Source: Candidatus Heimdallarchaeota archaeon (GTDB lineage: Archaea; Asgardarchaeota; Heimdallarchaeia; Heimdallarchaeales; Heimdallarchaeaceae). From it: a DNA stretch of 64,000 nucleotides. The position numbers and the translations under genes were made by a program. Under the pieces are notes generated by a model that made no database searches, was not told the origin of the DNA, and worked only from the letters and a program-made list of their open reading frames with translations. Positions within the stretch are counted from its first letter, which is position 1. Each line of letters starts with the position of its first letter. Positions 17,992-64,000 of the stretch are shown here, piece after piece. The stretch is taken from positions 14,264 through 78,263 of the forward strand of contig JABCTC010000008.1 of NCBI GenBank assembly GCA_018238545.1, in the 5' to 3' direction.

Positions 17992-18039
17992 AAATAAACT
18001 TCTCATTAAAGTGTTATTGGAAAAGTTTTTCACACTTAT

Positions 18040-19296: not shown

Positions 19297-19333
19297 TATT
19301 ATATAAGGAGTTCAAACACTTATATTTCTTGAT

Positions 19334-35020: not shown

Positions 35021-35117
35021 TAGAAAGAATTACTTGTAAAATCTTTTGTATTAAGAACGCACGTTATGAAACTTGGTCAAACTTGCCAGAGGCGGTCTAA
35101 CCGTCGTTTAAGTGGGT

Positions 35118-35138
35118 CCCCTCACGTGCGATGAGGGG
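35118..35138. repeat. Perfect GC-rich hairpin (CCCCTCA-cgtgcga-TGAGGGG) at the 3' end of the TnpB fragment. Candidate IS200/IS605 right-end or omega-RNA structure
   Basis: 7-bp stem and 7-nt loop, read directly. It abuts the tnpB stop (35146). Confidence 0.6.
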
Positions 35139-35145
35139 AAGAGGA

Positions 35146-35856: not shown

Positions 35857-36091
35857 CTTCTTAGGATATTTGATGATACTCCTTACATTCTTGCTACCAC
35901 CCCAATTCTTACTAATATGTTTTCTTTTCTCACTATTTGGTCAAAAGTATATCTCACCTCTCCTCCTACGGCAAGATTGGATAGGTTTTTGTTCTTCAGT
36001 AGATTAAGGTTGTTAATAAAAATAAAATAAAAATAGTTTGAGAGGTAGAATTTGTACCAACTCCTCTCGTTTTAGAATGGTAAAAGTGAAA

Positions 36092-36991: not shown

Positions 36992-37159
36992 ATCCTTGCC
37001 TCTTGAAATTTTAGTTAAATATAATCTTTTTATTTCTTTCTCTGTCTATTAAGTATGAAATTATGGTTAATAAACTCTATTACTGTTGCCATGGCATCTG
37101 TGCTTAATATAGCTGAATCGTGATGTAAAAATTGTAGAATAAAAGAAATTTCATTTTGA

Positions 37160-37813: not shown

Positions 37814-37949
37814 AAAAAACAGAGTTAATTATATTATATAGTTTTTGATTAGTAGAAGACAGTTAACAATTGTCTTTCTTTGTGTTTAATGGAAAGACAT
37901 TTTATCTGATACAATTTCTTTTATTAAAGCAGACAAGTGTGAAAAAGAA

Positions 37950-38555
37950 ATGGCAAATAGTGAAATCTTTGATAGAACAAAAGATTCTAATGAGCTGGTT
38001 TTCCCAGGAACTCGTTTAGCAGTAACAGAAGAGTTTATTGCAGGACCTGGTACTTATTCAACAGAAGATTACATCTATTCTTCAGTTGCAGGGCTTGTTA
38101 TAATAGATTTAGGAAAACATGAAATTACAGTTATGCCTAAAGCTAAAATGACCCCTGTTCCCAAAAACAATGCAATCGTTCTTGGCAAAGTGGTGAATGT
38201 TTCGCGTCAAGTAGTTACTGTATCAGTATTTTCAATTGAAAATCAAGAAATCTATCCAACATATACCATGGTTATACATATTTCAAGTATCTCTCGCGAA
38301 TATTTAGAAACAATTGATGAAGCAATCTGTTCAGGCGACATTGTACGTGCAAAAATTCTTGATTCAAAAACCATACCCCTTCAAGGATCCTTAATTAGTT
38401 CTCAACTTGGAGTCATACAATCTAATTGCTCAATATGCGGAGCAAAGTTAAATAAAATTGGAAGAAATAAGTTGAAATGTTCCAGATGTTCAAACATTGA
38501 AGGTAGAAAAACTGCAATTGATTTTGGCAGTGGGCATTTGGGGTATAAACTCTAA
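37950..38555 (+). CDS. csl4: Exosome complex RNA-binding subunit Csl4 (S1 plus zinc ribbon)
   Basis: N-terminal domain, S1 domain, C-terminal CSICG...CSRC zinc ribbon. Confidence 0.75.
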   Translation: MANSEIFDRTKDSNELVFPGTRLAVTEEFIAGPGTYSTEDYIYSSVAGLVIIDLGKHEITVMPKAKMTPVPKNNAIVLGKVVNVSRQVVTVSVFSIENQEIYPTYTMVIHISSISREYLETIDEAICSGDIVRAKILDSKTIPLQGSLISSQLGVIQSNCSICGAKLNKIGRNKLKCSRCSNIEGRKTAIDFGSGHLGYKL

Positions 38556-49442: not shown

Positions 49443-50342
49443 TTACAATTTAAGCTGATCTTCTTGTATTTGCACTGGCTCATTTGCTAATTTTGCCTTC
49501 TTATGAATGTCAATTTTGTTGACATAGTAGACTATTCCTTTAACTTCTGAAAGAGCGCCAATTATGACGTTTTTACCTTTAACATCCTGTTCAACGACTG
49601 TGTTGCTAATGTCTACTTCATCAATCGCAAAAACTGTGCCTTCAATACTAGATCTCTTTATTCTTCTAAGTTTGTGACCAAGGACATTCTTGTTTATGAA
49701 AACATCTGCTCCAACCAAGTTACCCTCAACAACCATTTTACCGTTTGCTTCAACAGTTCCCTGAGATAGTAAATTCCCTTTTGTTACAGACGATCCTGAA
49801 AAAGATACCCCTTGATCTGCTTGTAAATTGTCTCCACATTTGAAACTTCCTGATCCCTTTATTTTCCCTTCAACTATTACTTCACCACCAACCTTAGCAG
49901 AACCTGAAAATTTCACGTTTCCTCCTGCTTGAAGGAACCCAGCACAGGAAAATGACCCTGAGCACTTAACATCCTCATGAGCTGTAATACTGCCTCCACT
50001 TCTCAGGGATCCTGCAGCTTTTAGACTCTTGCAAACCAAGTCATTCTCGATTTTAGCAGATCCAGCAAATTTAATGTCTTTAGGAATATCTCCGCCACTT
50101 ATTTTGGCAGAACCCGCAGTTGAAAGAACTGTATCAGAACTGAGCTGAGCTCCAGACACTTTAATGTGTGGAACGGAACCATTTCTTCTTGCTTCAAGTT
50201 TAGATTGTTCTAATTTTCCTTGATATCTTTCTTTTAGTTCAGAGTAATTTCCTTTATCAATCTCTCCACTTTCAAATTTTTTCTCGAGTAACTCGAGCAA
50301 TTCTTCATACATTTTAACTTCATTATCGGACATATTTATCAC
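49443..50342 (-). CDS. Bactofilin-like beta-helical polymer-forming protein with an N-terminal SHOCT-like helix
   Basis: Repeated KISG/KFAGSAKI/VKCSGSF/VKFSGSAKVGG/IKGSGSFKCGD units typical of bactofilin (DUF583). N-terminal YEELLELLEKKFESGEIDKGNYSELKERY resembles SHOCT. Confidence 0.6.
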   Translation of the reverse strand: MINMSDNEVKMYEELLELLEKKFESGEIDKGNYSELKERYQGKLEQSKLEARRNGSVPHIKVSGAQLSSDTVLSTAGSAKISGGDIPKDIKFAGSAKIENDLVCKSLKAAGSLRSGGSITAHEDVKCSGSFSCAGFLQAGGNVKFSGSAKVGGEVIVEGKIKGSGSFKCGDNLQADQGVSFSGSSVTKGNLLSQGTVEANGKMVVEGNLVGADVFINKNVLGHKLRRIKRSSIEGTVFAIDEVDISNTVVEQDVKGKNVIIGALSEVKGIVYYVNKIDIHKKAKLANEPVQIQEDQLKL

Positions 50343-50497: not shown

Positions 50498-50628
50498 TGG
50501 TGCGGGGAGGGAGATTCGAACTCCCGAACTACTAAAGAACGGATGACTTTTCTTTTTTCTAACCCTTATTTTTTGGCTTTAAACCAAGATCTTAAGTCCG
50601 CCGCCGTTGGCCACTTGGCTATCCCCAC
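50498..50628 (-). tRNA. tRNA-Leu (anticodon UAA) with a roughly 46-nt intron (about 50545..50590) in the anticodon loop, and encoded CCA
   Basis: The exons are identical to the tRNA-Leu(CAA) at 17907..17991 except for the anticodon arm and variable arm. A 46-nt insert follows anticodon-loop position 37/38. Confidence 0.8.
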
Positions 50629-50914
50629 ATTCTTCTGTGTTTTTATGCGGCTATTATAGAAACTATCCTTTGTTTTTTAAAACTTTTCATTTTGATTTTA
50701 TTGTTTGTTTTTATTATGGATGTAATCCTATAGGATCTCCTATTAAAAATAGCACTAACTCAACTGGTCATGTCATAGTTTGGGTGAAATGGACGCAGAA
50801 GGCGATTTCTTGGTTCTCTTAAACCTAAATATCTATTTCTTCAAACACTCTTAATGTTTCATTAACTTTTTGTGGTGTATAAATAAGAAAAGCTTCAGTA
50901 AATAACGATTTAGT

Positions 50915-52006
50915 ATGGTGGGGGGGAGAAGATTTTTAGCTATTGTTATGTTAGCGTGCATCTTATTACAAACTACTTCTTCTCCTAGAGCCATTTTACC
51001 ATATGGTGATTTATTTTATTCCAATTTTCTGGTTGTAGGAAAAGAGCTAGAGTGGAAAGTTAGTGTTCTTGATTGGTCAGGAAACGAATCAATTTATTCT
51101 AAAGCCTATATTGACGATACTAACCTTTCTCAAGGAGATAACGTGAAACTATCGGTAACTCATGATCCTAATATTTTCCTCAATAATTTAATGACTGAAA
51201 GTGAATGGTTAAACATCTCCTTAAACGGACAAGAAAAGCGCTTTTATGCTTCTGATGTTCATCTTGGAGCTCATACTTGGATTTATGGGAATTTTTTCAT
51301 TTCTCCAGTTATTGACAGAATAGAAGATAATTTTACACTATTATTTGAAAAATATTATGCCCACGTAAAATCTACAGAGTACAATAACACTGAATATTAC
51401 ACAGATATAGGTGAGACGTATTCTATTGCCTTGATTAATACAGAGTATTTGCTCTTTAATATTTCAGATGTTCTTTTCAAGGAAACCTTCTATTATTGCG
51501 AATATTTTAATGCTGTTGATAATTGCTATGAAAATGAAGAAGAAAGCCTCTTCAAGCTATACAGCGTTTTTTATGAATCTGTGATAGATATTGAAAGAGG
51601 GACATTATTTTCTTATAAATGTTATATTAATTCTGTATGCAACTATACTTCTGAACTAATAGAGAACGAATATGCTGAAGACCACTATTACTTATTGATA
51701 GAAAACAAAGATAAAACTACAGGCTACGCTAATGATTTAACTTCAACTAGTACAACAGTGTCTTATGAAACTATTTTTGGCATAAATGTCAACCATATCG
51801 TTATTGGAATGGCGATATTCACTGCCTTATTTGCCACTGTGGAATGGTTCTATGCGCAGAAAAAAGAGAAGAAAATCAAACAAGTTGAAAAACGACAAAT
51901 AGCTGGATTCGCAGAAAAGATTAAGAGAGCTATGCAGCCACAAGAGAAAAAGGACAAAGAAAAATCTTCACTCACAAAGTCTACTACATCTAACTTGTCA
52001 AAATGA
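50915..52006 (+). CDS. Secreted surface protein with a C-terminal TM anchor and a Lys-rich cytoplasmic tail
   Basis: Signal peptide. Many NxS/T sequons. TM helix IVIGMAIFTALFATVEWFY followed by a KKEKK-rich tail. Confidence 0.5.
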   Translation: MVGGRRFLAIVMLACILLQTTSSPRAILPYGDLFYSNFLVVGKELEWKVSVLDWSGNESIYSKAYIDDTNLSQGDNVKLSVTHDPNIFLNNLMTESEWLNISLNGQEKRFYASDVHLGAHTWIYGNFFISPVIDRIEDNFTLLFEKYYAHVKSTEYNNTEYYTDIGETYSIALINTEYLLFNISDVLFKETFYYCEYFNAVDNCYENEEESLFKLYSVFYESVIDIERGTLFSYKCYINSVCNYTSELIENEYAEDHYYLLIENKDKTTGYANDLTSTSTTVSYETIFGINVNHIVIGMAIFTALFATVEWFYAQKKEKKIKQVEKRQIAGFAEKIKRAMQPQEKKDKEKSSLTKSTTSNLSK

Positions 52007-53255
52007 TTACACTAGCAATACTTACACATGCTCGGTAAAGGCCAAAGAAAGCAAGTGGAAGAAGTATCTTTATTATTGTGAGAACATTTTTTCTATCCTT
52101 CTCCCTATCTGTCTTTTTGAAGATTATAACATATAGCTTGTTTAATGAAACAAGTGAACTGAAAGTTGTACAGATGAGAAAAATAGTTGATAGAGTTTGT
52201 AATAATATATTTAATGTTTCATATATTGAATGCACTGAGAGGATTTCTGAATTTAATACTAGCATGAAATATTGAGGCGAATATTCATAGAGGGTATTAA
52301 CAAGTAATAACATTAAAATTCTCATTGCAAAAACCATAGTAAGGATAAGGATTGTTTTACTAATAACAACCAGAGACGGATTTTTTTCTTTGTTTAATTC
52401 AGTATTAATTATGTCTGTACCTCCAATTATTTTGCGAAAGTAATAATTCACTGAACCAGTTGTTTTTACGTTAGAATTCCTAGATATTTTCCTATGTTTA
52501 CCTAGTGCTAAAAGAAAAAGATGACGTGATAACCCAATTATTACGACAAGAAATCCTCCCATCGAGAAAAAATCAAGAAAATCATAAAAATATCCCCAAT
52601 TGTGATCAATGAGCTGAGGATAGTAGAAATAAGGGTGGAAAGAGGTGTATACAAATAGCACAATTGAGATAATTAATGCAATAACTGTTTTTATTATCAT
52701 CTCCTTATGTGTAGGTAATTTAGCTAATGGGTTCTTAGTCACATGATTTGCCGTTTTTCCTTTTTTGACCATTAGTGTTCCTCCCAGTATGTTGAACACG
52801 ATTAGTCCTGCAATAACTCCAAATATTAACCACCAGTTAATTTTGGTTGGTTCTGAAGACAAATATTCAAATGATTCAGTAAACTCTTTACTATTTATTT
52901 GGTCATAAAAACGAATGTTAAGAATATTCAACTTGTAGAGATAGTCTTCTGGTAATTTAACAATCAATATGCTATATATTGAAAGCAATTCTGTTCCAAA
53001 TCTTATTCTACAATTCTCCGTTATTTCTATGTCATTAAGAAAGACGCTGAAGCCTATTGGACGAGGAAGGTTCATTAAAGTGACGTGAATCTCTTTATTT
53101 TGTTCCATTATCTGTATTTTTGTTATTTCTATATCCTTTGCAGAGCTTGCGCCTTCAACAGTGCTACAAAGAAGAACCATTGTGATTAGAAAGAGCACGA
53201 TAAATCTAGTTTTCTTCATTAGTGATATAACGAAAACATCCCATAAATACACCAC
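51990..53255 (-). CDS. Multi-pass membrane protein with an N-terminal signal peptide and a small ectodomain
   Basis: Signal peptide, about 120-aa ectodomain, then at least 7 hydrophobic helices. Confidence 0.45.
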   Translation of the reverse strand: MVYLWDVFVISLMKKTRFIVLFLITMVLLCSTVEGASSAKDIEITKIQIMEQNKEIHVTLMNLPRPIGFSVFLNDIEITENCRIRFGTELLSIYSILIVKLPEDYLYKLNILNIRFYDQINSKEFTESFEYLSSEPTKINWWLIFGVIAGLIVFNILGGTLMVKKGKTANHVTKNPLAKLPTHKEMIIKTVIALIISIVLFVYTSFHPYFYYPQLIDHNWGYFYDFLDFFSMGGFLVVIIGLSRHLFLLALGKHRKISRNSNVKTTGSVNYYFRKIIGGTDIINTELNKEKNPSLVVISKTILILTMVFAMRILMLLLVNTLYEYSPQYFMLVLNSEILSVHSIYETLNILLQTLSTIFLICTTFSSLVSLNKLYVIIFKKTDREKDRKNVLTIIKILLPLAFFGLYRACVSIASVIILTS

Positions 53256-53443
53256 AGAAAATTAGTTCTTAATGTATCATAGATAAAAAACAAGAAAAAT
53301 AAAGAAATTTAACATTATGGGTGCAATCTCGTAGGATCTCTTGGTAGTAATCGCACTTCTCTAATATTTGGTAAATCAAGTATTTTTTGGACAAATCTTT
53401 CTATTCCAGTTCCACTGCCTTCGTATGGTATTCACAGATTTCT

Positions 53444-53821
53444 TCAAATCCAGTCCTTTCTCCAGTCATCATAGTTATCAGGAAGTTTTTCTGACTCATC
53501 AAGAGTATTATTGTTGAGTTTTTTTCTATAATAAGTTTCATTATTCTTAAAAATATCATACCAAGCTGAATTAATCAGTTCATTTATGAAAGGGATAAAT
53601 ACTAGGTTTAGTAGTACTAATAGTATTGTTAGAATACTTAGAACCAGGACTATCACAGGTGATTCAATTACAATGATAGTAATTAGGACAGTAATTAAAA
53701 TAACACTATAAATTATCTGCCAATTAGAACGTCTTTTATCCTGTTCTAATAGGATTTCTTTACTATTTTTTTTCTCTTGTTTTTTTATACTTTCAAGATT
53801 GAATATTTTCATTTTAATCAA
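53444..53821 (-). CDS. Small two-TM membrane protein
   Basis: Hydrophobic segments IIYSVILITVLITIIVI and VLVLSILTILLVLLNLVFIPFI. Confidence 0.35.
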   Translation of the reverse strand: MIKMKIFNLESIKKQEKKNSKEILLEQDKRRSNWQIIYSVILITVLITIIVIESPVIVLVLSILTILLVLLNLVFIPFINELINSAWYDIFKNNETYYRKKLNNNTLDESEKLPDNYDDWRKDWI

Positions 53822-54241
53822 TTCTTACATATAATATTAACATGTATATCCTCATAATTCAATATAAAAGGACATCCTTACATTTTATTAGTTTTTTTCA
53901 AATGAGAAAACCTAATGATGTTTTTGATTTCAAATGCTACCCTCAAATTTTAGCCACTTTCTTATTATCATTTAAATATGGAAGTAAAAATTGCATAGAA
54001 GTGTAAAAAAAGGTAGTATTTGAGAAATATTAGAAACAAACTTTTGTAAGTGAAGAAAACCTATCTTCTTCATATAGTATGAGCATTTACTTTTTCAATC
54101 TTCTTTGCTTGAATCTTTAATTTCAGTAACAAAACGTTCATCCATAAAAAACTAATAACTAAACTAAGCATGCTGTTTAAAATAGTGTGAAAATATTAAA
54201 TGAATAGATAGAAATAATGAACAGAATAAACTGTAAATCTA

Positions 54242-56020
54242 GTGATGTGTTATAATATGACCAGTTTCAATGGTAAAACTTCCAAAGAAATAGAAAGCAA
54301 ATTTCAAGAATTGAAAATGAAAGTGTGGAATTATATACTAAAGGATGATCATGAGAATATACCTCAATCTTTGTTCCAACATTTAGAGGATGAATTCAAT
54401 AGAATAGAAACTACATATGATATAAGAGATGACAAACTTAATCTTTTTCATGTAAAACATAACTATTTACTAACAAAATTTTACGAATTCTTTAATAAAG
54501 ATCAAACAATTTCAATGGAATTGTTAATTGATGCTCTCTCTTTCTTACTTGAAAGACACTTGTTAAGAAAGTATCAACCTCAAACATTTGAGAAAATGTT
54601 ACTTCCATACTTTGTTGCTATTGGAAAAATAAAACCACAAGCTGAAAAAATACATTGGAATCAAATTGAAGGCAAATTTCTGAAATTTCTAGACAAGTAT
54701 ACTAAACAACTAAACTTCGCTTCGAAGAATCTTGGAGGAATATTTGACAATCTTACAAGATTGTTCTTCGAGGGCTTCTACGAAAAACGAGTTTCCACAT
54801 TTAGTACTAGAGGAGAATATCTTGATGCAAATGAGATTAGTAGTAGAGTTAATACCATTCTATCTAATCTTATGGATGTTCATAGTAGTCGTGAAACAAA
54901 TACAATTTCCTACGGATGGGAGATATTATACAAAATAAAGAAAAGGCAATTGCATTATTTAGTTAGATTCAACTATTTTGAGGAAACCACAGAGAAAAGA
55001 CAATCTGTAAAGAAAGAAATAGAGATTATAACTGACGATATGTGTCGATATTCAAGCTATTCACTAAAAGCTTTTGAAAAATACTATAAAAACAGAATTT
55101 CTAATGATGAAGGAAAAGAAGAAGATTTCTTATACAAAAAAACACTAAAAGAACTTGATACCTTTACTGCTTCCTATTTCTTGTATGCTTACTCAAAATT
55201 AGATATACTCAAAGCTTGGAATGTTTTGGATAAGATAAAAACTTATTTAGTTGGAAAAGCATTTAAAGAAAATGTTCCACTTTCTGATACGCTTCTAGAA
55301 TATTACGGTGAAGAATGGTCAGTACTCTACATTTTTGCAAAAATCAGTCTTTTAAGAGAAGAAATAATGAAGAGAGAAAAATCTGTAAAACAAGAATGGC
55401 AAAAAGAGATGTTTAAGAGAATTTCTTTAGTACTAGAAGAGGAAAAAAAACTATTCAAGTATGAATTAACATTGAAAAGGGATTATAACCTTAAGATTAT
55501 GACATCACAATTCGCAGGGGGTTTTTCAGAATACCTTATACATGATTTAGCTCAAAAATTCTATGATTTCGGTCCACTTGATGAACAGAAACAATCTGCT
55601 TTTTTTGACTTATTTCACTGCATAAAAACTATGTCTACTAAAGATGACATAGTTTTGAATAAAAGATTATCTCAAAATGATCCCGATATTGATATTTATA
55701 TGAAAAACAAAGGTGCATTGTTTTTAAAAAATTCCACAATTGAAGCAGATGAGATGAAACAATTGTGGAAGGAGTTAACGTTATGTAACAATAAGAATAT
55801 TAAGAATGTTTATTTTGGGATAAATTTTGTTAAAAACATCCATAAAATTGAATATATTCGAGTAAATTTCAAAAAAATGACAAAAGAGTATTCTGAGATG
55901 TATATTTCAGTTTTTGACATAAAAGATTTGGTTGAGGCACTATTTCAGGAGCTTGAAAGAAGTAAAATGCCAAAAACGACCTTTCAGAAGATGGATTTTT
56001 ATAGAATTTTAGATTATTAA
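54242..56020 (+). CDS. Large all-alpha cytoplasmic protein of unknown function
   Basis: 592 aa. No recognisable motif. K/E/Y/F-rich. Confidence 0.45.
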   Translation: MMCYNMTSFNGKTSKEIESKFQELKMKVWNYILKDDHENIPQSLFQHLEDEFNRIETTYDIRDDKLNLFHVKHNYLLTKFYEFFNKDQTISMELLIDALSFLLERHLLRKYQPQTFEKMLLPYFVAIGKIKPQAEKIHWNQIEGKFLKFLDKYTKQLNFASKNLGGIFDNLTRLFFEGFYEKRVSTFSTRGEYLDANEISSRVNTILSNLMDVHSSRETNTISYGWEILYKIKKRQLHYLVRFNYFEETTEKRQSVKKEIEIITDDMCRYSSYSLKAFEKYYKNRISNDEGKEEDFLYKKTLKELDTFTASYFLYAYSKLDILKAWNVLDKIKTYLVGKAFKENVPLSDTLLEYYGEEWSVLYIFAKISLLREEIMKREKSVKQEWQKEMFKRISLVLEEEKKLFKYELTLKRDYNLKIMTSQFAGGFSEYLIHDLAQKFYDFGPLDEQKQSAFFDLFHCIKTMSTKDDIVLNKRLSQNDPDIDIYMKNKGALFLKNSTIEADEMKQLWKELTLCNNKNIKNVYFGINFVKNIHKIEYIRVNFKKMTKEYSEMYISVFDIKDLVEALFQELERSKMPKTTFQKMDFYRILDY

Positions 56021-56286
56021 CAACAGTAAATTGGAAAAAATGAACTATAAACGGTTTTTTTGGGTAAGTATCGGATTTTTTAAAATTAAAAGCTTCCTTC
56101 AAATAGTTAACAATTATTTGATATTATGTACAAGATTAAGAAGTATTTTGTAACTTGTCATGCTAAAAGAAAAGATATATTTTTTCCTGAAAGTAATCCG
56201 ATAAAGTTTCTTCTTCCGCTTCTTCAGCAAAAAAGTCCACTTAAATTGTTCCTTGATTTACAATAAATAAGAAATTTATCGTTTTG

Positions 56287-56631
56287 CTAGCTACAAGCCA
56301 ACATCTGATCTATTTCCTTTTGTTTGAACAAGATAATTTTGAAAGAACAGTGCTTGTTAATGTGTTCAACCATTTCTGAAGCAGTAGAACTAAATCTGTT
56401 TGCAATTATTATAGCGCCATCACATTGTAAATCCCCTATTCTTTCCTCAGTTTTGATAATAGTATTTGTCCCTACCTTTTTCTTCCAATCAAAGATAAAA
56501 ACGGCATACCTTTGGGTTTTATCACTGACTATGAAGGGTTTAATCACATCTATTTCATCACATAATTGGTCAACCTTACCATAACGATGCAAGAAAACCC
56601 ACACTTTCGTTTCCATCTTTCCAGCAATCAT
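56287..56631 (-). CDS. Small protein of unknown function, possibly a restriction-endonuclease-like (PD-(D/E)xK-like) fold
   Basis: 114 aa. VFIFDWKKK...IIKTEER could be a degenerate D...ExK-like core. Very tentative. Confidence 0.25.
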   Translation of the reverse strand: MIAGKMETKVWVFLHRYGKVDQLCDEIDVIKPFIVSDKTQRYAVFIFDWKKKVGTNTIIKTEERIGDLQCDGAIIIANRFSSTASEMVEHINKHCSFKIILFKQKEIDQMLACS

Positions 56632-56746
56632 TTTCTCAAAGTAATACTTAGTAAGCTAGATATTAGTACCTACGTAGTTATACATGTCAATGTATATCTA
56701 TTAGTAAGGACTAAGAGCTAGTGAAAATATCAAGAAGGAGAAGATT

Positions 56747-57421
56747 ATGTCAAAAAAATTAAGTAATATATTGGCTTTTAGTCTGTTTTTCTTTGTACTT
56801 CTATTTCCAAATAGTTTAATTACTGGAAGTACACCCACAATTGCTTCCAGAATCTCTCAGATCACAGAAATTTCTGTAACTACGGATAATAGTTATGATA
56901 AACCTAATACTACACTTTTTAGAATCAATGTTTCCGTAGAAATTTTAAACAGGAACACTGAAAATTATACGGTTATAGAAACGGCAGATCATTATCCGAA
57001 AATTGTTATCAATGCTTCATTTGTAAATCAAACGTTAGGATTAGAGCCTATTATAATAAGTTTAAATATGGGAACTGAGTATATTTATCAACCAGCGATT
57101 ACAGAGGAATATGAAAGCATCAAATTTTATATTAATCAGACCAATTTAGCTTGTCTCCCGGATGGTAATTATACTATTATTAGACCAATCAACACAGCAT
57201 CTAAATATGGGGGGATTGAAGCTGCAGAGATGTTACCAACTTTAATCCGAGTTACTTCAGGTATTACAAACATTACATATGCCAATTTTACAGACCTACC
57301 CCTTCCTGAAGTAAGTTCAGCATTCACAGCTACTCTTACAACTACTTTCTTACTACTAATTTCATTCTTTGTAATGACAAGGAAAAACTCAACCAAGTTG
57401 AAAAAAGCAGGTTTATTTTAG
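56747..57421 (+). CDS. Secreted surface protein with a C-terminal TM anchor
   Basis: Signal peptide. NxS/T sequons (NVS, NYT, NAS, NQT, NIT, NFT). C-terminal TM plus RKNSTKLKK. Confidence 0.5.
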   Translation: MSKKLSNILAFSLFFFVLLFPNSLITGSTPTIASRISQITEISVTTDNSYDKPNTTLFRINVSVEILNRNTENYTVIETADHYPKIVINASFVNQTLGLEPIIISLNMGTEYIYQPAITEEYESIKFYINQTNLACLPDGNYTIIRPINTASKYGGIEAAEMLPTLIRVTSGITNITYANFTDLPLPEVSSAFTATLTTTFLLLISFFVMTRKNSTKLKKAGLF

Positions 57422-57693
57422 TAGATTATGCTTTGTTATGATGCTCTAATCTTTTTTAGTCTTTCTTCATAATGTGAAAAGCACTCTTGCAGGAATCTTA
57501 TTTGCAGTTTTGCGCTCTTCTTTTGTTACAGGAATTTATTATTGTGTTTTATATTTCGTATTGTGATGAGAGAACAGACATCAATGAATACTTAGATTTT
57601 TCTTTCTCCTTATCTTTCTACTGATCTCTTTAGGTTTTGGGAAGATTCTTTTACCTCCTTTATAAATGAAATTGATTATGATTAAGATAGACA

Positions 57694-60600
57694 ATGAAAA
57701 AAGTGAAATTGAAAGTAATATTAATACTGCTCTCTATTAACCTAGTTCTTGTAAACTTGACGGTTTCAAGTTCTGACTATAGTAATAGTGAACAATTCGA
57801 ACAAGTTTCATCTTTGCTACCAGAAGACATTGTTTTTACTTACAATTCTTCCTTTTGCAGTCAGGAATTTTCTTTTGAAACTTCTATTCAACTGGACAGT
57901 TTTAATAGTTTTATCTTGTTTTTTGCTACTTCTGGAGACAAAACTACTAGCGAGGGCATAAAAGTCACTTTGAGTTTAGAAAAAGTGGAAGTTGTGTTTA
58001 ACATTGAAAGATTGTTTCAAGACACTTTTAATCACAACCTTACCCAAGCATTTTCCTATCCTGAGTTTGTTAATGGTAAAATGAATATTACTATAACCTG
58101 TGAAGCTCAAACTTCTTCTTCGTATTACTCTGGTTCTTTGAGAATCTTTAGCCAGACAAAAACGGAAAAAATTATTCCACCAACAATCACTGAAAGCTCT
58201 TCCCCTCTTCCCGTTGTTCCTAATTGGCTAGAATTTAAGGGGAGTATATCAACACCTGAAATAAGAAGTATTAGAACTGCTTTTAACAATTCCAATAATT
58301 TTGAAAAACTGAATCTTACCATTTCATTTAGAGCTAGTGATTTTTCAGCTTACTTACGGCAGTTTGAAGTGAAATTAAATGAAAATGTAATAAGTACAAA
58401 AGATTTTAAGAACAATCAACTAACGGAAGAAAAATTTTTCTTCTCCATAGATCCAGGATTAAATTTCTTGACAATAAATTTTATTGTGGAATTGTGTATG
58501 GATACAATTCAATTAACCAATATCTGTTTAATTGGAAATGGGATGAATGTTGAAAATATTCTCCCTGCAAACACTTACGATTGGTTGGCATGGGAAAATA
58601 ATGACGTTAATTATGTTTTTGATTTATCCTCTTTCAAACCTGTGTCAATCGGTTTAGAGCAAATTCTACAAATTGGTATTAAATATGGTTGTTTTGGAAC
58701 AGATAGACCTCCTGAGTTATATTATGAAGTTAAGTTAGGTATGAATGTAATAGATTCTGGTGAAATCTCTGAATCTGAACAAATTAGCTCTCCTCAAACT
58801 CTTCTTGTTCATACACCAGTTACCAACTATAATGACCCTTTAACTTTTAGAATTCAAGGGAGGGCAGAGGGATATGGAATTTTTTACATTCTCAACACAA
58901 GCTATGTCACTATCGAACCTTTACCAGAACTAAACGAACAAAACCCTTTGGAAAGAGAATTAGTTGAAATGGAAGTACACCTTACACCACTCTCTGAACC
59001 CCTTATCCTTATTTTTAGAGATTTTTTCAAAGTTAATTTTAGTTATTTGAAATGTAATATCTCTCTTTCTTTTTCTCTGACTGATGAGTTTGGTTCTTCT
59101 ATTAGGCAAATAAATCTTTTAATGAAACTTAATTGGCAAACAGTTATTGACCACCCAATAGCTTATGAGGATCAGATAAATGTCACGGAGTCAGAAATAT
59201 TATACAATAAAATGTATGCTGCCACTATCACCTTGTCTATTTATGGTGATGGACACACTATAACCTTAAGTAACTTAAAATATGTTCTTTTTCCTTCCAA
59301 TTCAAACAATATAACAATCCCTGTTCCTCCCACACCTCCAGCAGAAAGTAATAGTGACAAAGAACCAATTCATCCATCTAAATTATCTTTACTTTTCATT
59401 GAATATGGTATCATCATCCTTGGATTAACTCTTTTAATAACCCGAATTCTTTCTAATAGAGAGAAGAAACAAGAGAACACTGATGGAGAAACTCAAGTAG
59501 ATGACATAGAAATCCAAGTTGTTGGTAACAATACACAGCATGGACACTTATCCAAATTGCTGCAATCGACTAAAGATTGGTACCTAAAAGCAAAAGAATC
59601 TTTATCGCGAATCTTATTACTCCCATTAACGGTTGTTCATGTTATCGCTAATATAATCTGCCTTAGTCCAATTATTGACCAACTTAATGAAATTGCTTAT
59701 AGGGAGAGCCAAGAAGTTAAGCTTGTTGTACTGGGGACAGTAGGATTTTATTGTCTCATGGTCAGTGTTTATTCCTCAACTTTTGTGGCATTTTCTGTAT
59801 TCTATCTTGCTTTTAGTGATACTTTTTATGAGGATCTGTTTCAATTTACCAAAATTCTTGGTTATTTCGTTCTCATCCTCTTTTTTTCGTCTTGGATAAC
59901 TCTATTCATTTATATCCAACAAAATAGCCCAAATCTTGGAATGCTTGGTACACTCATTGTTCCGTTCATATTCTTAGGGGTAATTATTTTTCTTGTTTGG
60001 TTGGGTAAAACAAAAGAAAAACAATTTGAGAGATTAGTAAAAAACTTCTTTAAAACAGGACGAATAAAGGTAAACAACATTAGAAGTAATGATAACGAAG
60101 CAGACTCAATGATTGAAGAAGAATCTTTATCTAACACGCAATACGATACCCACTTTCAGAAGATTGTCAATCTTATTATTCAAGACATTTCTATAAAACT
60201 TCAAGTTCCTGTAAATCGTTTTACTGAACTTCTGAGCATTTCGCCAAGATTAGCACACAGATTGTTAATAGACGTGTCCAATAAAATCCCAAAATTAGGG
60301 AAATATTATATTACAGAGCAGATTTATATCCGCAGTGCTGATAGTGAGATAGGGGTCGATACACTAGAAGATAGGACAGAGGAAAAAGAAGGGGAATTAA
60401 TATCGAAATATGATAAGAATAGTGTGAATAGTGAAAAAACTGCAAATAACCATGATGATATGGAAAATCAAAATAATGAAAAAACATCCAAGAAATTCAA
60501 GGATTATTGTGATTTAGATTCTAAAATAAAAAATGAAACTATCAAACAAATAGAAGAGTATTCTATTTATAAGGATTATAATGATGGTAAAATTCTTAAT

Positions 60601-63600
60601 TCAGTGTTAATACGTGGAAATAAGTCCCAATTTACTGGATTAGAGAGTATAGAACCCCATTATTGCAAATTATATAAATCCATAAATTTGGGAGTAAATG
60701 TAGAAAACACAATAATAGACTTTCTCACTCAAATAGTAGATTTTTATAATGAACTATCTATAGTTCTTTACAATAAACATAATTTTGAAGCAACCAGTGT
60801 GAATTCAACAACAAATCACAAAAAAGTACCATTTAGTGTTGTTGGATTAAGAGAGAATTTAGCGAATATTAGAACCATTCTTGAAAGAGCAAATTTACTT
60901 GACTTGCTAATCACAGACATAACCTATAACTTAGAAATCATTTTAGAACGAAATCGTAAATATACCGAAGTTTTACCTTTTTTCAAGTTGCTTTTATATT
61001 CAGCGAACTTAGTCTTGATAGCGAATCAAGATTTGAAAAAAAAGAAAATTGTGAATCCTTCAGTAGATTTGCTATCCGAATTCTCTAAGTTTGATTTTCA
61101 AGATACATTAAACCTTATTACTTCTTTTTGTGGAATTGAACTACTTGGTGAAAAAGAATTCAAGAACGGCAAGATTATAAGAAATGGTATTTTAAAATTT
61201 AATGAACAAATAGGAGAAGTAGAACTTCACAGACCATATTTTGAAAATTTTCTTTCAAAAATTACTATTAAAATTGATGAAAACTCTATCATTAATTACT
61301 TCTATAAGGGGCATTCAGGGATTGATGAAATGCTTCCGAATATTTTTCTTGAAGTGAAATATAGTTCTTCCTTGAATGATGTTCTGAACAATTTTACTTA
61401 TAAAACAATATCATCAAGTACTTACCATATCAAAAATAGATATATTAGAGGTTTAGAGATCGATCCTCTTATGATTCTTTTTGGTGCAATAAAAATACCT
61501 CTAATCATTAAATCGAAAAATAGTAACTACAATTTGTATGATATCTCAAACTACAAAGATCTCTTTGAACTGTATTTTTCACTAACAAATGATAAAAAGA
61601 AAAAAAACGTTTTGAGTACTTTAATACCTTCATTTCAAGAGTATTTTAAATATAGATCGAAGGAATATGGTTTTGGTCAAAGAATGATGTTATTAAGGAC
61701 TTTAGCAAGTAAGAGTAACTTATTAACTCCTGAAAAACTCATAAGATTTGTTTCATTTTTGCAACTTCATACACTTGTAAAGGACGGTTTACTTACTAAA
61801 TTCTTATTCTTTAACATTGGGAAAAATAACAGATTCATAATGCACAAAATAAACACAATAACTGGGCACTCTACTGATTTTGTCACAGATAGTCCCTTCT
61901 ATCTAGAATCTAACTCAGCTTACATAAGTTATAGAACTGATCAAGTTGGTAAATTTTTAACATATTTAGGTGTTACAGAATGTCCAGATGATGTAAAATT
62001 TACCGGATGCATGGAAAAATCCTATGAAGTTATTGATGGTGATTTTGCTTCTGGCTTTATTTTCTTTTATTATAAAAATAAGACACATCGCAAATATGTC
62101 CTTGGTTATTGTGTTCTGAATGAATTTGTCCAAGACTTTGCCCGAATGAAATTTTCTAAATATCTACTAGATGGAAGTATAAATCCTTTTAATGATCCCT
62201 TTGATGTGCAATTGGAACTAACGACTTACAGAGTGTCTCCTTTTAATGAGTTTAAGTTTGAGTATTCACTAGGTAAAGAAACCTTTGTTTCATTGGATGC
62301 CATTGATACAGATTTAGTGGCATGTAAACTTGAAAAAATATCCATTTATTCTTTTCTTTTTAAAACAAAAAACCAACAAACAGACGACATAATATGGAAA
62401 CAAAAGGAAGTTGAGTTTAGTCCTTATAGTTTTGATAAATTGTTGAAATATTCTTCAGAAATTGGAAATAAGGAGAAAGAGTTTATCTATATGACTTTTT
62501 TGGATGTAGAAGGCAGTCATCTTTTCTCTAGTTATTCTCCCTATTTTAGATTCGATCGAGGATTCGGGCAATGCTACTTTGGTGGAGATCATAAGAATGT
62601 TACTCCTTCTATGAAGGCTTTAAAACGAGCTGAAATGGCTCTATTTATAGAAGCACGAAAAACTAAAGGATTAATCTATACTTATGATGGATTCCAATAC
62701 CATTTTGAACTTACAACTGTTCCTATTAACATAGCGATATCCCAATTAATTAGTATTAAGAGGAAGCTTACCTCTATTTTGCGAAATATTAAAGATAAGA
62801 ATATATCCTCTTCTGATTTAAATTATGCTAGAAATCTGTTTGTTCTTTTGTATCAAAACCATGCCATTGACTATGAACGATTTAAGGGAATAGCACAAAT
62901 TAAGGATTACGATGAGTTATTCTCTATTCAAAACCTCTCTAAGTCTTTAAGTCTACTTATAAATAAGATTGGAGAGACTATGAATTATTACTGGGAATTG
63001 TATCTTCATGCACCATTTTTATTTGCAAATGTGAATACTTATTGTGATGAATTTGGTATTGAACAAATATATTATCGTAATGTAATTTATAACGGAATAA
63101 CAAATGTAATTCCAGATCATAATCCAATTGGACAAAGTTTGTTCATTCTTACAGATTTAGAAAATAGTAATATTAAGAATTTTACTCAGAGATTCAAGAA
63201 ACTAAAAAATTTCAATGGGTATGAATTTAGTAGAAAGACAAATTCAGAAACATATACGCAAATAGATTATGTTTATGATTCACCTTTTTCTTTCATTCAT
63301 AATGTTACTATTGCTGACAATCTGTCATCTATAAATGGTTATCAGGATTTTATCGTGAATTGTGGTCTAATTAATTTAAAAAATTCAAAGATATTGCATC
63401 TCCTTTTTGGTAATAGTGTAGAATATAAATCTAGAAATAATTTTTATAGATTGATAAAACTAGTCAAAGATTATAATAGGGCATTATATTATAATGAAGT
63501 AGAAGAATCGTATTTTTCAGTAGATTCTAAAAACATTGAAGAAATAATCGCCCTTATTGATAAAGGAAATACCCATAAATTATCGAAATTTGATGAACTC

Positions 63601-64000
63601 TATATCTATACACACATGAAACATATAATGTCTTCTTTGCAAAGGGATTTAACCTGCAATAATGAGCTAAGAAGTGCACTAAATAGATGTTCAAATACGA
63701 AAAAAAGAATTGATGTAATTTATGGGTGGGTAAAACAGCACTATATTGATACTAATGAATTATTAAATACTCTTTCTAATAATCAAATGGTATATTTTTT
63801 CAAAAATTACCCGACTCGTGGTCATAGTGCATCTATTGAAGCTACATTGTTTACCTATTCCTATTTTGTTGATAGAATAAAAAACATGCACAGAAGGGAG
63901 GAATTTATTTATCTAAGAGAGGATTTGATTAAAGTAGAACGAGGCGAGATTTACCTTAATGAATTCCTTTTCAAAACTGTAAAATTGATGGTCGAAAAAA
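57694..64000 (+). CDS. Giant (more than 2100 aa, 3'-truncated by the window end) membrane protein: signal peptide, roughly 540-aa glycosylation-sequon-rich ectodomain, 6 TM helices, and a cytoplasmic domain of over 1400 aa with unknown function
   Basis: Manual codon-by-codon read: ATG at 57694 and no in-frame stop through 63999. Absent from the ORF track because there is no stop within the window. N-terminal MKKVKLKVILILLSINLVLVNL signal. TM cluster at about aa 565-780. Confidence 0.7.
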   Translation, partial: MKKVKLKVILILLSINLVLVNLTVSSSDYSNSEQFEQVSSLLPEDIVFTYNSSFCSQEFSFETSIQLDSFNSFILFFATSGDKTTSEGIKVTLSLEKVEVVFNIERLFQDTFNHNLTQAFSYPEFVNGKMNITITCEAQTSSSYYSGSLRIFSQTKTEKIIPPTITESSSPLPVVPNWLEFKGSISTPEIRSIRTAFNNSNNFEKLNLTISFRASDFSAYLRQFEVKLNENVISTKDFKNNQLTEEKFFFSIDPGLNFLTINFIVELCMDTIQLTNICLIGNGMNVENILPANTYDWLAWENNDVNYVFDLSSFKPVSIGLEQILQIGIKYGCFGTDRPPELYYEVKLGMNVIDSGEISESEQISSPQTLLVHTPVTNYNDPLTFRIQGRAEGYGIFYILNTSYVTIEPLPELNEQNPLERELVEMEVHLTPLSEPLILIFRDFFKVNFSYLKCNISLSFSLTDEFGSSIRQINLLMKLNWQTVIDHPIAYEDQINVTESEILYNKMYAATITLSIYGDGHTITLSNLKYVLFPSNSNNITIPVPPTPPAESNSDKEPIHPSKLSLLFIEYGIIILGLTLLITRILSNREKKQENTDGETQVDDIEIQVVGNNTQHGHLSKLLQSTKDWYLKAKESLSRILLLPLTVVHVIANIICLSPIIDQLNEIAYRESQEVKLVVLGTVGFYCLMVSVYSSTFVAFSVFYLAFSDTFYEDLFQFTKILGYFVLILFFSSWITLFIYIQQNSPNLGMLGTLIVPFIFLGVIIFLVWLGKTKEKQFERLVKNFFKTGRIKVNNIRSNDNEADSMIEEESLSNTQYDTHFQKIVNLIIQDISIKLQVPVNRFTELLSISPRLAHRLLIDVSNKIPKLGKYYITEQIYIRSADSEIGVDTLEDRTEEKEGELISKYDKNSVNSEKTANNHDDMENQNNEKTSKKFKDYCDLDSKIKNETIKQIEEYSIYKDYNDGKILNSVLIRGNKSQFTGLESIEPHYCKLYKSINLGVNVENTIIDFLTQIVDFYNELSIVLYNKHNFEATSVNSTTNHKKVPFSVVGLRENLANIRTILERANLLDLLITDITYNLEIILERNRKYTEVLPFFKLLLYSANLVLIANQDLKKKKIVNPSVDLLSEFSKFDFQDTLNLITSFCGIELLGEKEFKNGKIIRNGILKFNEQIGEVELHRPYFENFLSKITIKIDENSIINYFYKGHSGIDEMLPNIFLEVKYSSSLNDVLNNFTYKTISSSTYHIKNRYIRGLEIDPLMILFGAIKIPLIIKSKNSNYNLYDISNYKDLFELYFSLTNDKKKKNVLSTLIPSFQEYFKYRSKEYGFGQRMMLLRTLASKSNLLTPEKLIRFVSFLQLHTLVKDGLLTKFLFFNIGKNNRFIMHKINTITGHSTDFVTDSPFYLESNSAYISYRTDQVGKFLTYLGVTECPDDVKFTGCMEKSYEVIDGDFASGFIFFYYKNKTHRKYVLGYCVLNEFVQDFARMKFSKYLLDGSINPFNDPFDVQLELTTYRVSPFNEFKFEYSLGKETFVSLDAIDTDLVACKLEKISIYSFLFKTKNQQTDDIIWKQKEVEFSPYSFDKLLKYSSEIGNKEKEFIYMTFLDVEGSHLFSSYSPYFRFDRGFGQCYFGGDHKNVTPSMKALKRAEMALFIEARKTKGLIYTYDGFQYHFELTTVPINIAISQLISIKRKLTSILRNIKDKNISSSDLNYARNLFVLLYQNHAIDYERFKGIAQIKDYDELFSIQNLSKSLSLLINKIGETMNYYWELYLHAPFLFANVNTYCDEFGIEQIYYRNVIYNGITNVIPDHNPIGQSLFILTDLENSNIKNFTQRFKKLKNFNGYEFSRKTNSETYTQIDYVYDSPFSFIHNVTIADNLSSINGYQDFIVNCGLINLKNSKILHLLFGNSVEYKSRNNFYRLIKLVKDYNRALYYNEVEESYFSVDSKNIEEIIALIDKGNTHKLSKFDELYIYTHMKHIMSSLQRDLTCNNELRSALNRCSNTKKRIDVIYGWVKQHYIDTNELLNTLSNNQMVYFFKNYPTRGHSASIEATLFTYSYFVDRIKNMHRREEFIYLREDLIKVERGEIYLNEFLFKTVKLMVEK

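Follow-up and report, generated by a model that had tools for sequence, protein, structure and literature searches.

The six open reading frames (ORFs) between a tRNA-Leu(UAA) gene and a giant ORF in the 64,000-nucleotide stretch of Heimdallarchaeon (Asgard archaeon) DNA analysed here (the window) are best read as a composite island of foreign DNA, built up in two or more additive steps of insertion into the 3' end of the aspartyl-tRNA synthetase gene aspS, a reading to which we give a probability of about 0.75. This kind of island is already known. The gene order is tRNA-Leu, a short vestige of the aspS terminus (vestige 1), A363, B421, a longer aspS remnant (remnant 2), C125, D592, E114, F224, the giant ORF, and aspS. 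A363 and B421 are the cargo of the older insertion 1, and insertion 2, of about 11.5 kb, holds C125, D592, E114, F224, and the giant ORF. A sequence-only reading of this DNA had proposed an accessory, possibly lineage-specific surface glycoprotein module linked to the tRNA. Its accessory, lineage-restricted, and variable nature is borne out, as the block is absent at 19 related loci and its content differs between close strains. The single tRNA-linked module is not, with at least two separate insertions at aspS and with D592 and E114 predicted to be cytoplasmic and nuclease-like.

All six ORFs were found where that reading had placed them; in the ORF list they are A363 at 50915-52006 (+), B421 at 51990-53255 (-), C125 at 53444-53821 (-), D592 at 54242-56020 (+), E114 at 56287-56631 (-), and F224 at 56747-57421 (+). 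The giant ORF runs from 57691 to 64000 (+), open to the window end, and the source contig gives its full length as 2351 aa. The AT-rich spacers are indeed long: between the bactofilin gene and the giant ORF there are six non-overlapping gaps of 115-572 nt, versus a window median of 46 nt, and coding density is 0.75 in the island versus 0.89. The divergent C125/D592 spacer (53822..54241, 420 nt) has a GC of 0.24 and matches nothing in Rfam up to E = 1; in some assemblies a 54-aa ORF is called within it at 53842-54006. A check for compositional deviation finds a modest shift, in which only C125 (GC 0.265, the lowest in the window) and D592 (0.285) fall below all 57 upstream genes, forming the lowest pair among 64 genes; GC3 is not unusual across the six genes except for a high value in E114. 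The profile families of Pfam, NCBIfam, PADLOC, and PHROG give no significant family for any of the six proteins, in agreement with the earlier remark that enzymatic motifs are not recognisable. By hydropathy, the signal peptides or transmembrane (TM) segments ascribed to all six hold for A363, B421, C125, and F224 and fail for D592 and E114; the frequent sequons hold for F224 (in excess) and marginally for A363, and fail for B421 (none) and D592 (at expectation). A363, B421, E114, and F224 look like real genes on dN/dS values of 0.10-0.27, and D592 on its 34 homologs. The status of C125 is the least certain of the six, because no homolog was found for it.

The ancestral arrangement is given by 19 related Heimdallarchaeota loci (labelled L007-L015, L017-L019, L024, L028, and L029), which have the order aRF1, kinase, aspS, bactofilin, SRP54, with an aspS 74-93% identical in amino acids to that of the window genome. 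In 19 of 19 the six-gene block is absent, and intact aspS lies just past the bactofilin gene or past a small insert between the two, which is present at 4 loci. Conserved synteny of the block in distant relatives, named at the outset as what would refute the sequence-only reading, was not seen. In the source contig the ancestral order (aspS, AA-kinase, aRF1) resumes directly after the giant ORF, beyond the window, with intact aspS starting 52 nt downstream of it (giant ORF 10948-18003 +, aspS 18056-19369 -, in L118). Assemblies made independently (JGI, three NCBI MAGs, and ENA) show the same layout, which excludes an assembly artefact. The tRNA-Leu(UAA) gene (50498-50628, -) is genuine, scoring 39.3 bits against Rfam RF00005, with CCA encoded and a 46-nt canonical intron at position 38/39; ARAGORN misses it by default and detects tRNA-Leu(taa) with its intron when run with the -i option. 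It is conserved between aspS and the bactofilin gene in three relatives (L007, L017, and L029), and is a conserved landmark neighbouring the island. The island does lie on its 5' side, as first noted, but the target is the aspS 3' end and not the tRNA.

Two copies of that 3' end carry the argument. Remnant 2 (53315..53428, -; about 35 codons, reading ..GSGTGIERFVQKILDLPNIREVRLLPRDPTRLHP*) contains the last ~105 nt of the native aspS at 53315-53419. These 105 nt are 91% identical to the native aspS end of L029 versus 75% to the intact end in their own genome, and tblastn aligns remnant 2 with the L029 AspRS at 89% over 37 aa. The complementary pattern is seen in the intact gene, where the aspS of the window genome matches that of L029 at 92-95% over ~1200 nt and then at ~72-75% over the last ~150 nt. 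Remnant 2 is conserved in L005, L022, L023, and L121, and acts as an att-like junction between the two insertions. Vestige 1 (50714-50740, -) is a decayed 27-nt copy reading ..GDPIGLHP*, which matches the last 27 nt of the L029 aspS at 22 of 27 positions and sits at the exact point where aspS ends in L029. Only these two sites in the window score at least 20 of 27 against the aspS end, and none does in shuffles. Vestige 1 bounds the older A363+B421 insertion on its outer side, toward the tRNA, and has weaker support than remnant 2, because it is missing from L122 and L023, two outgroups that carry A363+B421.

Empty and intermediate states are found in relatives: L029 has neither insertion, and L122 has A363+B421 followed by intact aspS, without the second insertion. 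Insertion 2 separated aspS from its native last ~105 nt, now preserved as remnant 2, and brought a diverged sequence that replaces the final ~120-150 nt, so that the essential aspS stays whole. Use of the same aspS site twice would have pushed the older A363+B421 cargo toward the tRNA. We infer Campbell-type integration, in which a circular element entered through one crossover at an att-like site, the likeliest agent being a tyrosine-type integrase that acted in trans or has since been lost. The mechanism stays at that level since integrase, transposase, and replication genes were found in neither insertion with the Pfam, NCBIfam, PADLOC, and PHROG profile families; a search for extrachromosomal or viral copies also found none. 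Between the window and L005, dS is 0.40 for A363 and 0.37 for the giant ORF, and 0.37-0.43 for core genes, so the cargo is long resident and not recently mobile, having co-diverged with its host since before the strain split. Hence the island looks fixed or decayed rather than active.

A363 is predicted to be a type-I membrane protein: a signal peptide is followed by an ectodomain rich in Tyr and Asn and bearing 7 sequons, a C-terminal anchor (TM segment at ~295-313 by hydropathy), and a Lys/Glu-rich tail. Its 8 sequons against 4.0 expected are a marginal excess in the shuffle (P = 0.035). Only 6 homologs, all at least 57% identical, were found among 5.8 billion proteins; the gene is present in L005, L023, L121, and L122, whereas L029 and L022 lack it at this position and it was not detected in L006. 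Its dN/dS is 0.10-0.23. B421, convergent with A363 with a 17-nt overlap, has by hydropathy a signal peptide, an ectodomain of ~100 aa, and about six TM helices, and no sequons. Its start is probably the ATG at 53219 (409 aa, MKKTRF...), and the gene is called at 409 aa in L005 and L119. Among 1.84 billion proteins, four strong representatives were found, all at least 38% identical, and dN/dS is 0.16-0.27.

The DNA abutting remnant 2 is a variable slot that holds different genes in different strains. It contains C125 and D592 in the window genome, a 152-aa or 132-aa multi-TM protein in L121 and L022, a SIR2_2 protein in the sister strain L005 (Pfam E = 1.8e-27; PADLOC ThsA E = 2e-25), so that a SIR2 gene occupies the slot of D592 there, and a 144-aa ORF in L023. 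Window positions 53437-56245 have no counterpart in L121, between flanks 96-97% identical, and exchange in the slot would run through recombination between such conserved flanks. Island content thus differs even among strains with core-gene dS of 0.1-0.5, and the comparison with related genomes that had been suggested finds the island variable. In further relatives the locus behaves as a hotspot: L013 has TnpB, Rce1-like, and YaaC-like genes, L018 an SBP_bac_5 protein, and L028 an OmdA-like protein, and TnpB lies at the tRNA 3' end in L022 and L006.

C125 and D592 are strain-specific cargo of this slot. C125 is a small protein with a two-TM hairpin by hydropathy, and its family matches are weak and TM-driven (PADLOC '2TM effector' 1.6e-4, SLATT_4 1.3e-3). 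D592, probably starting at 54257, combines an N-terminal domain of ~400 aa made of helical repeats with an alpha/beta C-terminal domain of ~170 aa. Its 34 homologs, 38-47% identical and none with Pfam domains, place it in an unannotated family of ~590 aa, scattered in mobile or defence contexts of unrelated archaea, where its neighbours include methyltransferases, toxin-antitoxin genes, an rve integrase, and a nuclease/HNH/CARF cluster. In the family alignment, the invariant residues of the C-terminal domain are E430, P481-D482, D484, K496-N497, and E511, an E...PD...K...E pattern on an alpha-beta-beta-beta-alpha-beta core. The AlphaFold2 model has a pLDDT of 86.5 at full length and 82 over the C-terminal domain. 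Foldseek gives no match at E of 0.001 or better, the best, non-significant ones being a 'restriction endonuclease' at E = 7e-3 (BFVD), followed by NucS and Can2 (PDB); overall the best fold matches are restriction-endonuclease, Mrr, PD-(D/E)XK, NucS, and Can2 proteins. HMM searches of PDB and Pfam found no match, and the nuclease fold is not statistically established.

PD-(D/E)xK restriction-endonuclease-like nucleases of the Cfr10I/NgoMIV type have a relocated catalytic glutamate. As a lead only, D592 resembles them in the element order of its C-terminal domain, in the helix glutamate E430, in P481-D482 at the start of strand 2, in K496 at the end of strand 3, and in E511 on the next helix. 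It differs from them in that its motif reads F-L-K, so that the acid of the canonical (D/E)xK, two residues ahead of K496, is missing, in that no solved nuclease matches it significantly in sequence or fold, and in its large helical N-terminal domain, for which they have no counterpart. D592 is put forward as a candidate stand-alone nuclease or defence gene, a helical sensor with a restriction-endonuclease-like part, that would act in defence or inter-element conflict.

A rather improbable alternative is that D592 is a selfish or element-maintenance protein, such as a nuclease for transfer or homing, and that C125 and D592 form a self-inserting mini-element. The homologs do occur as single genes with neighbours that are not conserved, close to an rve integrase in one case, and elsewhere to a fragment of an integrase or to a nuclease cluster resembling a provirus; the low GC that D592 shares with C125 and the clean presence/absence noted above point the same way. 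Against this, terminal repeats were not found flanking 53437-56245, no copy turned up on viral contigs, L005 has a bona fide defence gene (SIR2) in the same slot, and two homolog contexts are restriction-modification-like, one with an N6_Mtase+Methylase_S fusion with VapBC adjacent and the other with an N6_N4 MTase with SNF2 and an SMC/Dnd-associated gene adjacent.

The remainder of insertion 2 has relatives elsewhere, so its genes are not orphans. In the Heimdall MAG CSMAG_1225 (L037), homologs of E114 (69%), F224 (48%), and the giant ORF (37%) stand in the same order at another chromosomal site. E114 is small, with weak restriction-endonuclease-like similarity (Mrr_cat E = 0.006, NA-iREase1 E = 0.025), and is conserved in Heimdallarchaeota, its CSMAG_1225 homolog having 139 aa; dN/dS is 0.14, and in L121 the gene seems to be truncated, with a call of only 52 aa. 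F224 has by hydropathy a signal peptide and a TM anchor at its C-terminus, with an ectodomain of 163 aa that bears 9 sequons; its 10 sequons in all exceed the 3.6 expected (shuffle P = 0.0002). It is absent from L005, has a dN/dS of 0.24, and is partnered with the giant ORF downstream of it, its L037 homolog (48-52%) likewise lying directly upstream of the giant homolog. Insertion 2 has its largest cargo in the giant ORF, which encodes a signal peptide and clustered TM segments at 565-769 and ends ~750 nt beyond the window; its six homologs of 1598-2283 aa have no Pfam domains, and relatives occur at other core-gene sites as well. A363, B421, F224, and the giant protein would be lineage-specific envelope proteins with a predicted surface location, and A363 and F224 are likely, by prediction, to be N-glycosylated.

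The CSMAG_1225 block lies between atpD and csl4, which are adjacent in the window at 37160-38555. This arrangement could reflect chromosomal relocation rather than an autonomous element, and it raises the unlikely alternative that the E114-F224-giant block moved within the genome by ~12 kb, from an ancestral place between atpD and csl4 to the other end of the conserved csl4-to-aspS block, duplicating a piece of aspS on the move, with later local gains and losses making the rest. The shared order and orientation, the lack of an integrase, and the equality of cargo and core-gene dS all suit such a move. It fails, however, to explain why the gene-proximal aspS end is at 75% to the sister strain when the gene body is at 93%, and it fails to explain vestige 1, the empty L029, and the A363+B421-only L122. 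Several copies of the giant family stand at unrelated core sites, so the CSMAG_1225 copy need not mark an ancestral position. That the six genes are one co-functioning cell-surface glycoprotein module is highly improbable and already contradicted by presence/absence patterns, for although four carry signal or TM segments, F224 and A363 are sequon-rich, and F224 is conserved alongside the membrane-bound giant protein, D592 and E114 have neither kind of segment, no paralogy was found among the six, alternating strands and long spacers mean no operon, and there are three histories (A363+B421 alone in L122, C125+D592 absent from L121, E114 and F224 conserved elsewhere).

The composite island can be compared with three known systems. 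Bacterial defence-cargo hotspots lie inside integrated elements and between conserved core genes, as in the hypervariable loci of P2/P4-like elements. The slot beside remnant 2 is similar in being short, with conserved bounds and unrelated genes in close strains, including the SIR2 (ThsA/Dsr-like) gene of L005; it differs in that 1 of 4 cargos is a recognised defence gene, the rest being small membrane proteins or unknowns.

Aloposons of Ca. Heimdallarchaeum (Wu et al. 2022, PMC8813620) combine giant genes of 3000-6000 aa in tandem (Otus, Ephialtes) with a MinD/ParA-like ATPase. Shared with them are the host phylum, the dominance of the inserted element by a giant gene with four small genes upstream of it, site-specific integration adjoining a tRNA locus, and related copies at different chromosomal sites of related genomes. 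The differences are a single 2351-aa gene, with no homolog above 2283 aa to set beside the aloposon sizes, no ParA by profile search, and a junction downstream of the giant gene that is aspS.

The third comparison is with Campbell-type islands and prophages at the 3' ends of tRNA or protein genes, which use tyrosine-integrase att sites. The present island departs from them in having no integrase or excisionase gene and no known circular form, in targeting aspS and not the adjacent tRNA, and in having co-diverged with its host to a fixed or decayed look. It shares with them a duplicated target 3' end, a displaced native end with a diverged element-borne end joined to the gene, empty sites in sister strains, and, as in tandem accretion, two successive insertions at one site with the older vestige the more decayed.

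The window corresponds to sequence in the Heimdallarchaeota (Asgard) MAG GCA_018238645.1 and in a JGI contig of 101.5 kb. Beyond the window, the source contig carries the giant ORF to its end, then 52 nt, then an intact aspartyl-tRNA synthetase gene (aspS, 437 aa) followed by the kinase and aRF1. A scan on SRP54, with one genome per species, gave 26 related loci, and 19 Heimdallarchaeota loci share the order aRF1, AA-kinase, aspS, bactofilin, SRP54, Pus10. In those 19, the intact aspS is found directly past the bactofilin gene or past a small insert, which is present in 4 of them; the gap between aspS and the bactofilin gene holds an intron-bearing tRNA-Leu in each of the 3 loci checked. The sole trace of aspS that this order comparison shows inside the window is a 37-codon piece at 53315-53428 (-), here called remnant 2, between the genes B421 and C125. 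Hence, with the intact aspS, the kinase, and aRF1 lying beyond the giant ORF, the ~11.5 kb that starts at remnant 2 and closes with the giant ORF is DNA inserted into aspS at its 3' end. The sister strain L029 has neither this insertion nor the one consisting of A363 and B421, and a more distant locus, L122, is without the inner one. A metagenome scan with the L029 AspRS returned only distant loci, at no more than 78% identity. L029 and L004 are two contigs of MAG CSMAG_2472 whose overlap runs from the bactofilin gene to the beginning of SRP54, a stretch in which both of them terminate, which suggests that the assembly break at that locus is due to strain heterogeneity.

The footprint of the insertion is read from how the aspS copies diverge. 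Over ~1200 nt, aspS of the window genome is 92-95% identical to that of L029, falling to ~72-75% over the last ~150 nt. The last 105 nt of remnant 2 show the opposite pattern, being 91% identical to the native end in L029 and 75% identical to the intact copy of their own genome. Therefore, the native end was displaced and the diverged end came with the insert. The repeats are att-like and come from the aspS 3' end, and the gene is kept whole by the copy borne on the element. Exactly this pattern would result if a circular element integrated by one crossover at an att site within the aspS 3' end. Pfam, NCBIfam, PADLOC, and PHROGs gave no integrase or transposase domain in any of the six ORFs or in the first 2103 of the 2351 aa of the giant protein, and it is because of this absence that we infer the integrating enzyme. 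A search for terminal repeats, direct or inverted, gave only AT-rich matches at chance level, both for the C125-D592 cassette and for the whole island, and neither D592 nor the giant ORF drew a match in scans of viral contigs. Our confidence is high in the insertion history and moderate in an integrase-type mechanism.

In L029 the tRNA flank is continuous with the aspS stop codon. In the window, a 27-nt copy of the aspS terminus, vestige 1, is found at 50714-50740 with 22 of 27 nt identical to L029, and is followed by A363, B421, and remnant 2. The aspS terminus matches the 64-kb window only at these 2 places, and matches nothing in shuffled versions. L122 (SRP54 at 91%, Pus10 at 65%) contains the tRNA flank, homologs of A363 and B421, and an intact aspS, from which it follows that A363 and B421 were inserted first and the giant-gene block second, both at the aspS end. 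The origin of vestige 1 is less secure than that of remnant 2, since vestige 1 is absent from L122 and L023, both outgroups with A363 and B421. The aspS terminus of L029 (8632-8658 of that contig) has its last 14 nt in common with vestige 1 and 2 nt different from remnant 2 (53315-53341); on these very few sites, L029 may retain the trace of a loss of A363 and B421 by recombination between repeats. As for age, A363 has a dS of 0.40 between the window and strain L005 and the giant ORF one of 0.37, matching the 0.37-0.43 of core genes, so the cargo is older than the split of these two strains.

Two positions vary among genomes whose core genes are at dS of ~0.1-0.5 from the window. The tRNA flank and remnant 2 enclose position 1, which is empty in L029, holds A363 and B421 in the window, L005, L121, and L023, and holds three unrelated ORFs in L022. 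Position 2 abuts remnant 2, and similarity stops at the inner edge of that remnant, within 53419-53436. It is occupied by C125 and D592 in the window and two near-identical MAGs, by a multi-TM protein of 152 aa or 132 aa in L121 and L022, by a 144-aa ORF in L023, and in L005, where E114 and F224 are also missing, by a 663-aa SIR2_2 protein (Pfam 1.8e-27) that matches the SIR2 of ThsA/Dsr in PADLOC (ThsA 2e-25). In remoter relatives, the interval between aspS and the bactofilin gene carries TnpB with Rce1-like and YaaC-like genes, or an SBP_bac_5 protein, or an OmdA-like protein. Insertions have recurred in this interval, which is a hotspot for them.

Full-length TnpB/Cas12f-like genes of ~650 aa lie beside the 3' end of tRNA-Leu in L022 (3943-5913), L006 (2-1945), and L013 (5913-7871). 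In L022, the insertion brings a second copy of 17 nt from the tRNA 3' end, CCA included, equivalent to window 50498-50514, and the L006 gene, an 83% homolog of the one in L022, adjoins the L006 bactofilin gene. Elsewhere in the window, at 35146-35856 (-), there is a 236-aa C-terminal fragment of a TnpB/Cas12f-like protein (Cas12f1-like_TNB, E = 5.9e-5; 42% to the L022 protein), within the sole GC-rich patch of the window (35001-37000, GC 0.40-0.42 versus ~0.33).

The tRNA next to the island is real. It is a tRNA-Leu(taa) spanning 50498-50628 and interrupted at position 38/39 by an intron of 46 nt, found by ARAGORN when introns are allowed and scored by Rfam at 39.3 bits for 50501-50628 (-); default ARAGORN reports no tRNA near the island because this one carries the intron. 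Its neighbor at 49443-50342 (-) encodes a bactofilin-like protein of 299 aa (Pfam Bactofilin E = 1.3e-5, narrowly missing the cut-off). Throughout the Heimdallarchaeota loci, the gene keeps its place next to tRNA-Leu and SRP54, and no such protein was detected in two closed Ca. Heimdallarchaeum genomes.

All six ORFs were correctly delimited from sequence alone. A363 is encoded at 50915-52006 (+; 363 aa) and B421 at 51990-53255 (-; 421 aa), the latter probably as 409 aa from an ATG at 53219. C125 (53444-53821, -; 125 aa) is without a homolog and is the least certain gene among the six. D592 spans 54242-56020 (+), where public gene calls use a later Met than that of the 592-aa ORF; these calls and the family alignment favor a start at 54257. 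Following are E114 (56287-56631, -; 114 aa), F224 (56747-57421, +; 224 aa), and the giant ORF, open from 57691 through the window end and 2351 aa long in the source contig. Purifying selection is evident on A363, B421, E114, and F224 (dN/dS 0.10-0.27), excluding the value for B421 against L005, which is an alignment artefact. Two NCBI MAGs, L119 and L120, have among their gene calls a 54-aa ORF at 53842-54006 (+), within the 420-nt spacer between C125 and D592. E114 is apparently truncated in the closely related ENA assembly L121 (9540-9885), whose gene calls have just an N-terminal ORF of 52 aa despite 97% identical DNA; that strain may carry E114 as a pseudogene.

The sequence-only reading had described the six ORFs as having signal peptides and/or TM anchors, frequent sequons, and no recognizable enzymatic motifs, and had taken them for putative glycoproteins and orphan genes. 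By hydropathy, four of the six have signal or TM segments: A363 and F224 have a signal peptide and a C-terminal anchor, B421 a signal peptide and ~6 TM helices, and C125 a two-TM hairpin, and there are none in D592 and E114. An excess of sequons is strong in F224 (10 observed versus 3.6 expected, P = 0.0002; 4.5 per 100 aa) and marginal in A363 (8 versus 4.0, P = 0.035; 2.2 per 100 aa), while B421 lacks sequons and D592 has about as many as expected; the mean for upstream proteins is 0.46 per 100 aa. A363 and F224 thus combine signal peptide, anchor, and N-x-S/T excess as expected of archaeal N-glycosylated surface proteins, and such is what we predict them to be. None of the six has a significant match in Pfam, NCBIfam, PADLOC, or PHROGs. 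The long spacers are confirmed, with six non-overlapping gaps of 115-572 nt between the bactofilin gene and the giant ORF versus a window median of 46 nt, and a coding density of 0.75 for the island versus 0.89. The spacers hold no structured RNA at E up to 1. The GC deviation is modest, and only C125 (0.265) and D592 (0.285) fall below all 57 upstream genes. No paralogy was found among the island proteins, nor internal repeats in the giant ORF. Overall, the observation is partly confirmed and its interpretation partly supported: the island is accessory, variable, and lineage-specific, but it is not a single glycoprotein module anchored on the tRNA.

The cargo genes differ in their distribution. 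A363 has 6 homologs, each of at least 57% identity, and B421 has 4 strong representatives among 1.84 billion proteins; this pair is restricted to a sub-clade. E114, F224, and the giant ORF are not orphans, with homologs in the Heimdall MAG CSMAG_1225 (69%, 48%, and 37% identity) that keep this order and are flanked by atpD and csl4, and further copies of the giant family adjoin PPDK and ABCE1 in other contigs. In the window atpD and csl4 are adjacent (37160-38555); in CSMAG_1225 they are split by 15.6 kb with 11 genes (1567-17217 of its contig), including a protein kinase and an S8 peptidase along with these homologs.

D592 has 34 full-length homologs of 38-47% identity without a Pfam domain, one of them labelled Archaeoglobus sp. 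Their neighborhoods are never conserved and are of types typical for mobile or defence regions: an N6_Mtase and Methylase_S fusion with VapBC; an N6_N4 methyltransferase with SNF2, an SMC/Dnd-associated gene, and an integrase fragment; an rve integrase; and a cluster of ligase, Hjc, HNH, VRR-NUC, and CARF. The homologs have no conserved partners, no C125-like neighbors, and no adjoining tRNA genes. One, at 39% identity in an unrelated archaeal contig (L126, 6255-9764), adjoins SRP54 with no tRNA between, which is probably coincidence.

The AlphaFold model of D592 is confident (pLDDT 86.5 and pTM 0.84 at full length; pLDDT 82 for the C-terminal domain modelled alone) and has ~400 aa of helical repeat and then an alpha/beta domain. 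The invariant residues E430, P481-D482, D484, K496-N497, and E511 are placed on a predicted alpha-beta-beta-beta-alpha-beta core. P481-D482, D484, K496, and E511 are invariant in 23 family sequences, with Phe two residues before K496, so the catalytic acid would have to be D484 or E511; in this missing acid, D592 may resemble the Cfr10I-type variant. The best Foldseek matches are a restriction endonuclease, Mrr, PD-(D/E)XK, TnsA, NucS, and Can2, none of them significant (best E = 7e-3). Searched with the full-length model, PDB yielded nothing beyond noise from TPR and helical-repeat proteins, and a family HMM against PDB found nothing. Pfam and PADLOC scans of the 23 members (D592 and 22 homologs) gave nothing consistent, and among catalogued anti-phage defence proteins (PADLOC 2023) D592 has no consistent match and C125 matches '2TM effector' only weakly (1.6e-4). 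The best reading of D592 is a putative restriction-endonuclease-like nuclease, and we name it a candidate defence nuclease with moderate to low confidence.

Interest in Asgard archaea comes from their standing as the closest prokaryotic relatives of eukaryotes, and one question is how foreign genes enter their genomes. This locus is a dated example, a stepwise accretion at one chromosomal site in Heimdallarchaeota with the empty, intermediate, and full states all persisting in sister strains, and with a strain-variable slot that in one strain holds a recognized defence gene. None of the four profile libraries that were scanned, namely Pfam, NCBIfam, PADLOC, and PHROGs, contains the D592 family of ~590 aa, and because it recurs in restriction-modification, toxin-antitoxin, and integrase neighborhoods of unrelated archaea, it is a concrete candidate for a nuclease-based defence gene. 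For annotation, the lesson is that what looks like a "surface-protein module" can be pieced together from insertions unrelated to one another, with short aspS fragments as the clue to its history.

Integrated elements and aloposons with giant genes have been described in Heimdallarchaeum (Wu et al. 2022, PMC8813620), and integrated elements with short att repeats in Atabeyarchaeia (PMC11529989). The locus is like the aloposons in host phylum, in a giant gene with four genes upstream, and in site-specific insertion, but it departs from their definition on three points: tandem giants, the ParA-like ATPase, and the downstream tRNA. Aloposons have tandem giant genes of 3000-6000 aa (Otus and Ephialtes), whereas here there is one of 2351 aa with homologs of 1598-2283 aa. 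Their four upstream genes are consecutive and include a MinD/ParA-like ATPase, whereas C125, D592, E114, and F224 are on alternating strands with no ATPase domain. They have a tRNA downstream of the giant genes, whereas here aspS is downstream and tRNA-Leu is far upstream, beyond the A363-B421 insertion. The locus shares with integrative islands the empty site in close relatives and the target-derived repeats, but the profile scans gave no integrase gene for either end. A bolder reading, which we consider rather unlikely, would make the 11.5-kb insertion a non-autonomous relative of the aloposon kind, with an aminoacyl-tRNA synthetase gene as its target, hit at the 3' end, and with an exchangeable defence slot, and would make D592 the founder of a new single-gene archaeal immunity family of helical sensor and restriction-like nuclease. 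We place the locus instead with a known kind of island, the integrative island, here with a variable cargo slot and either decayed or mobilised in trans.
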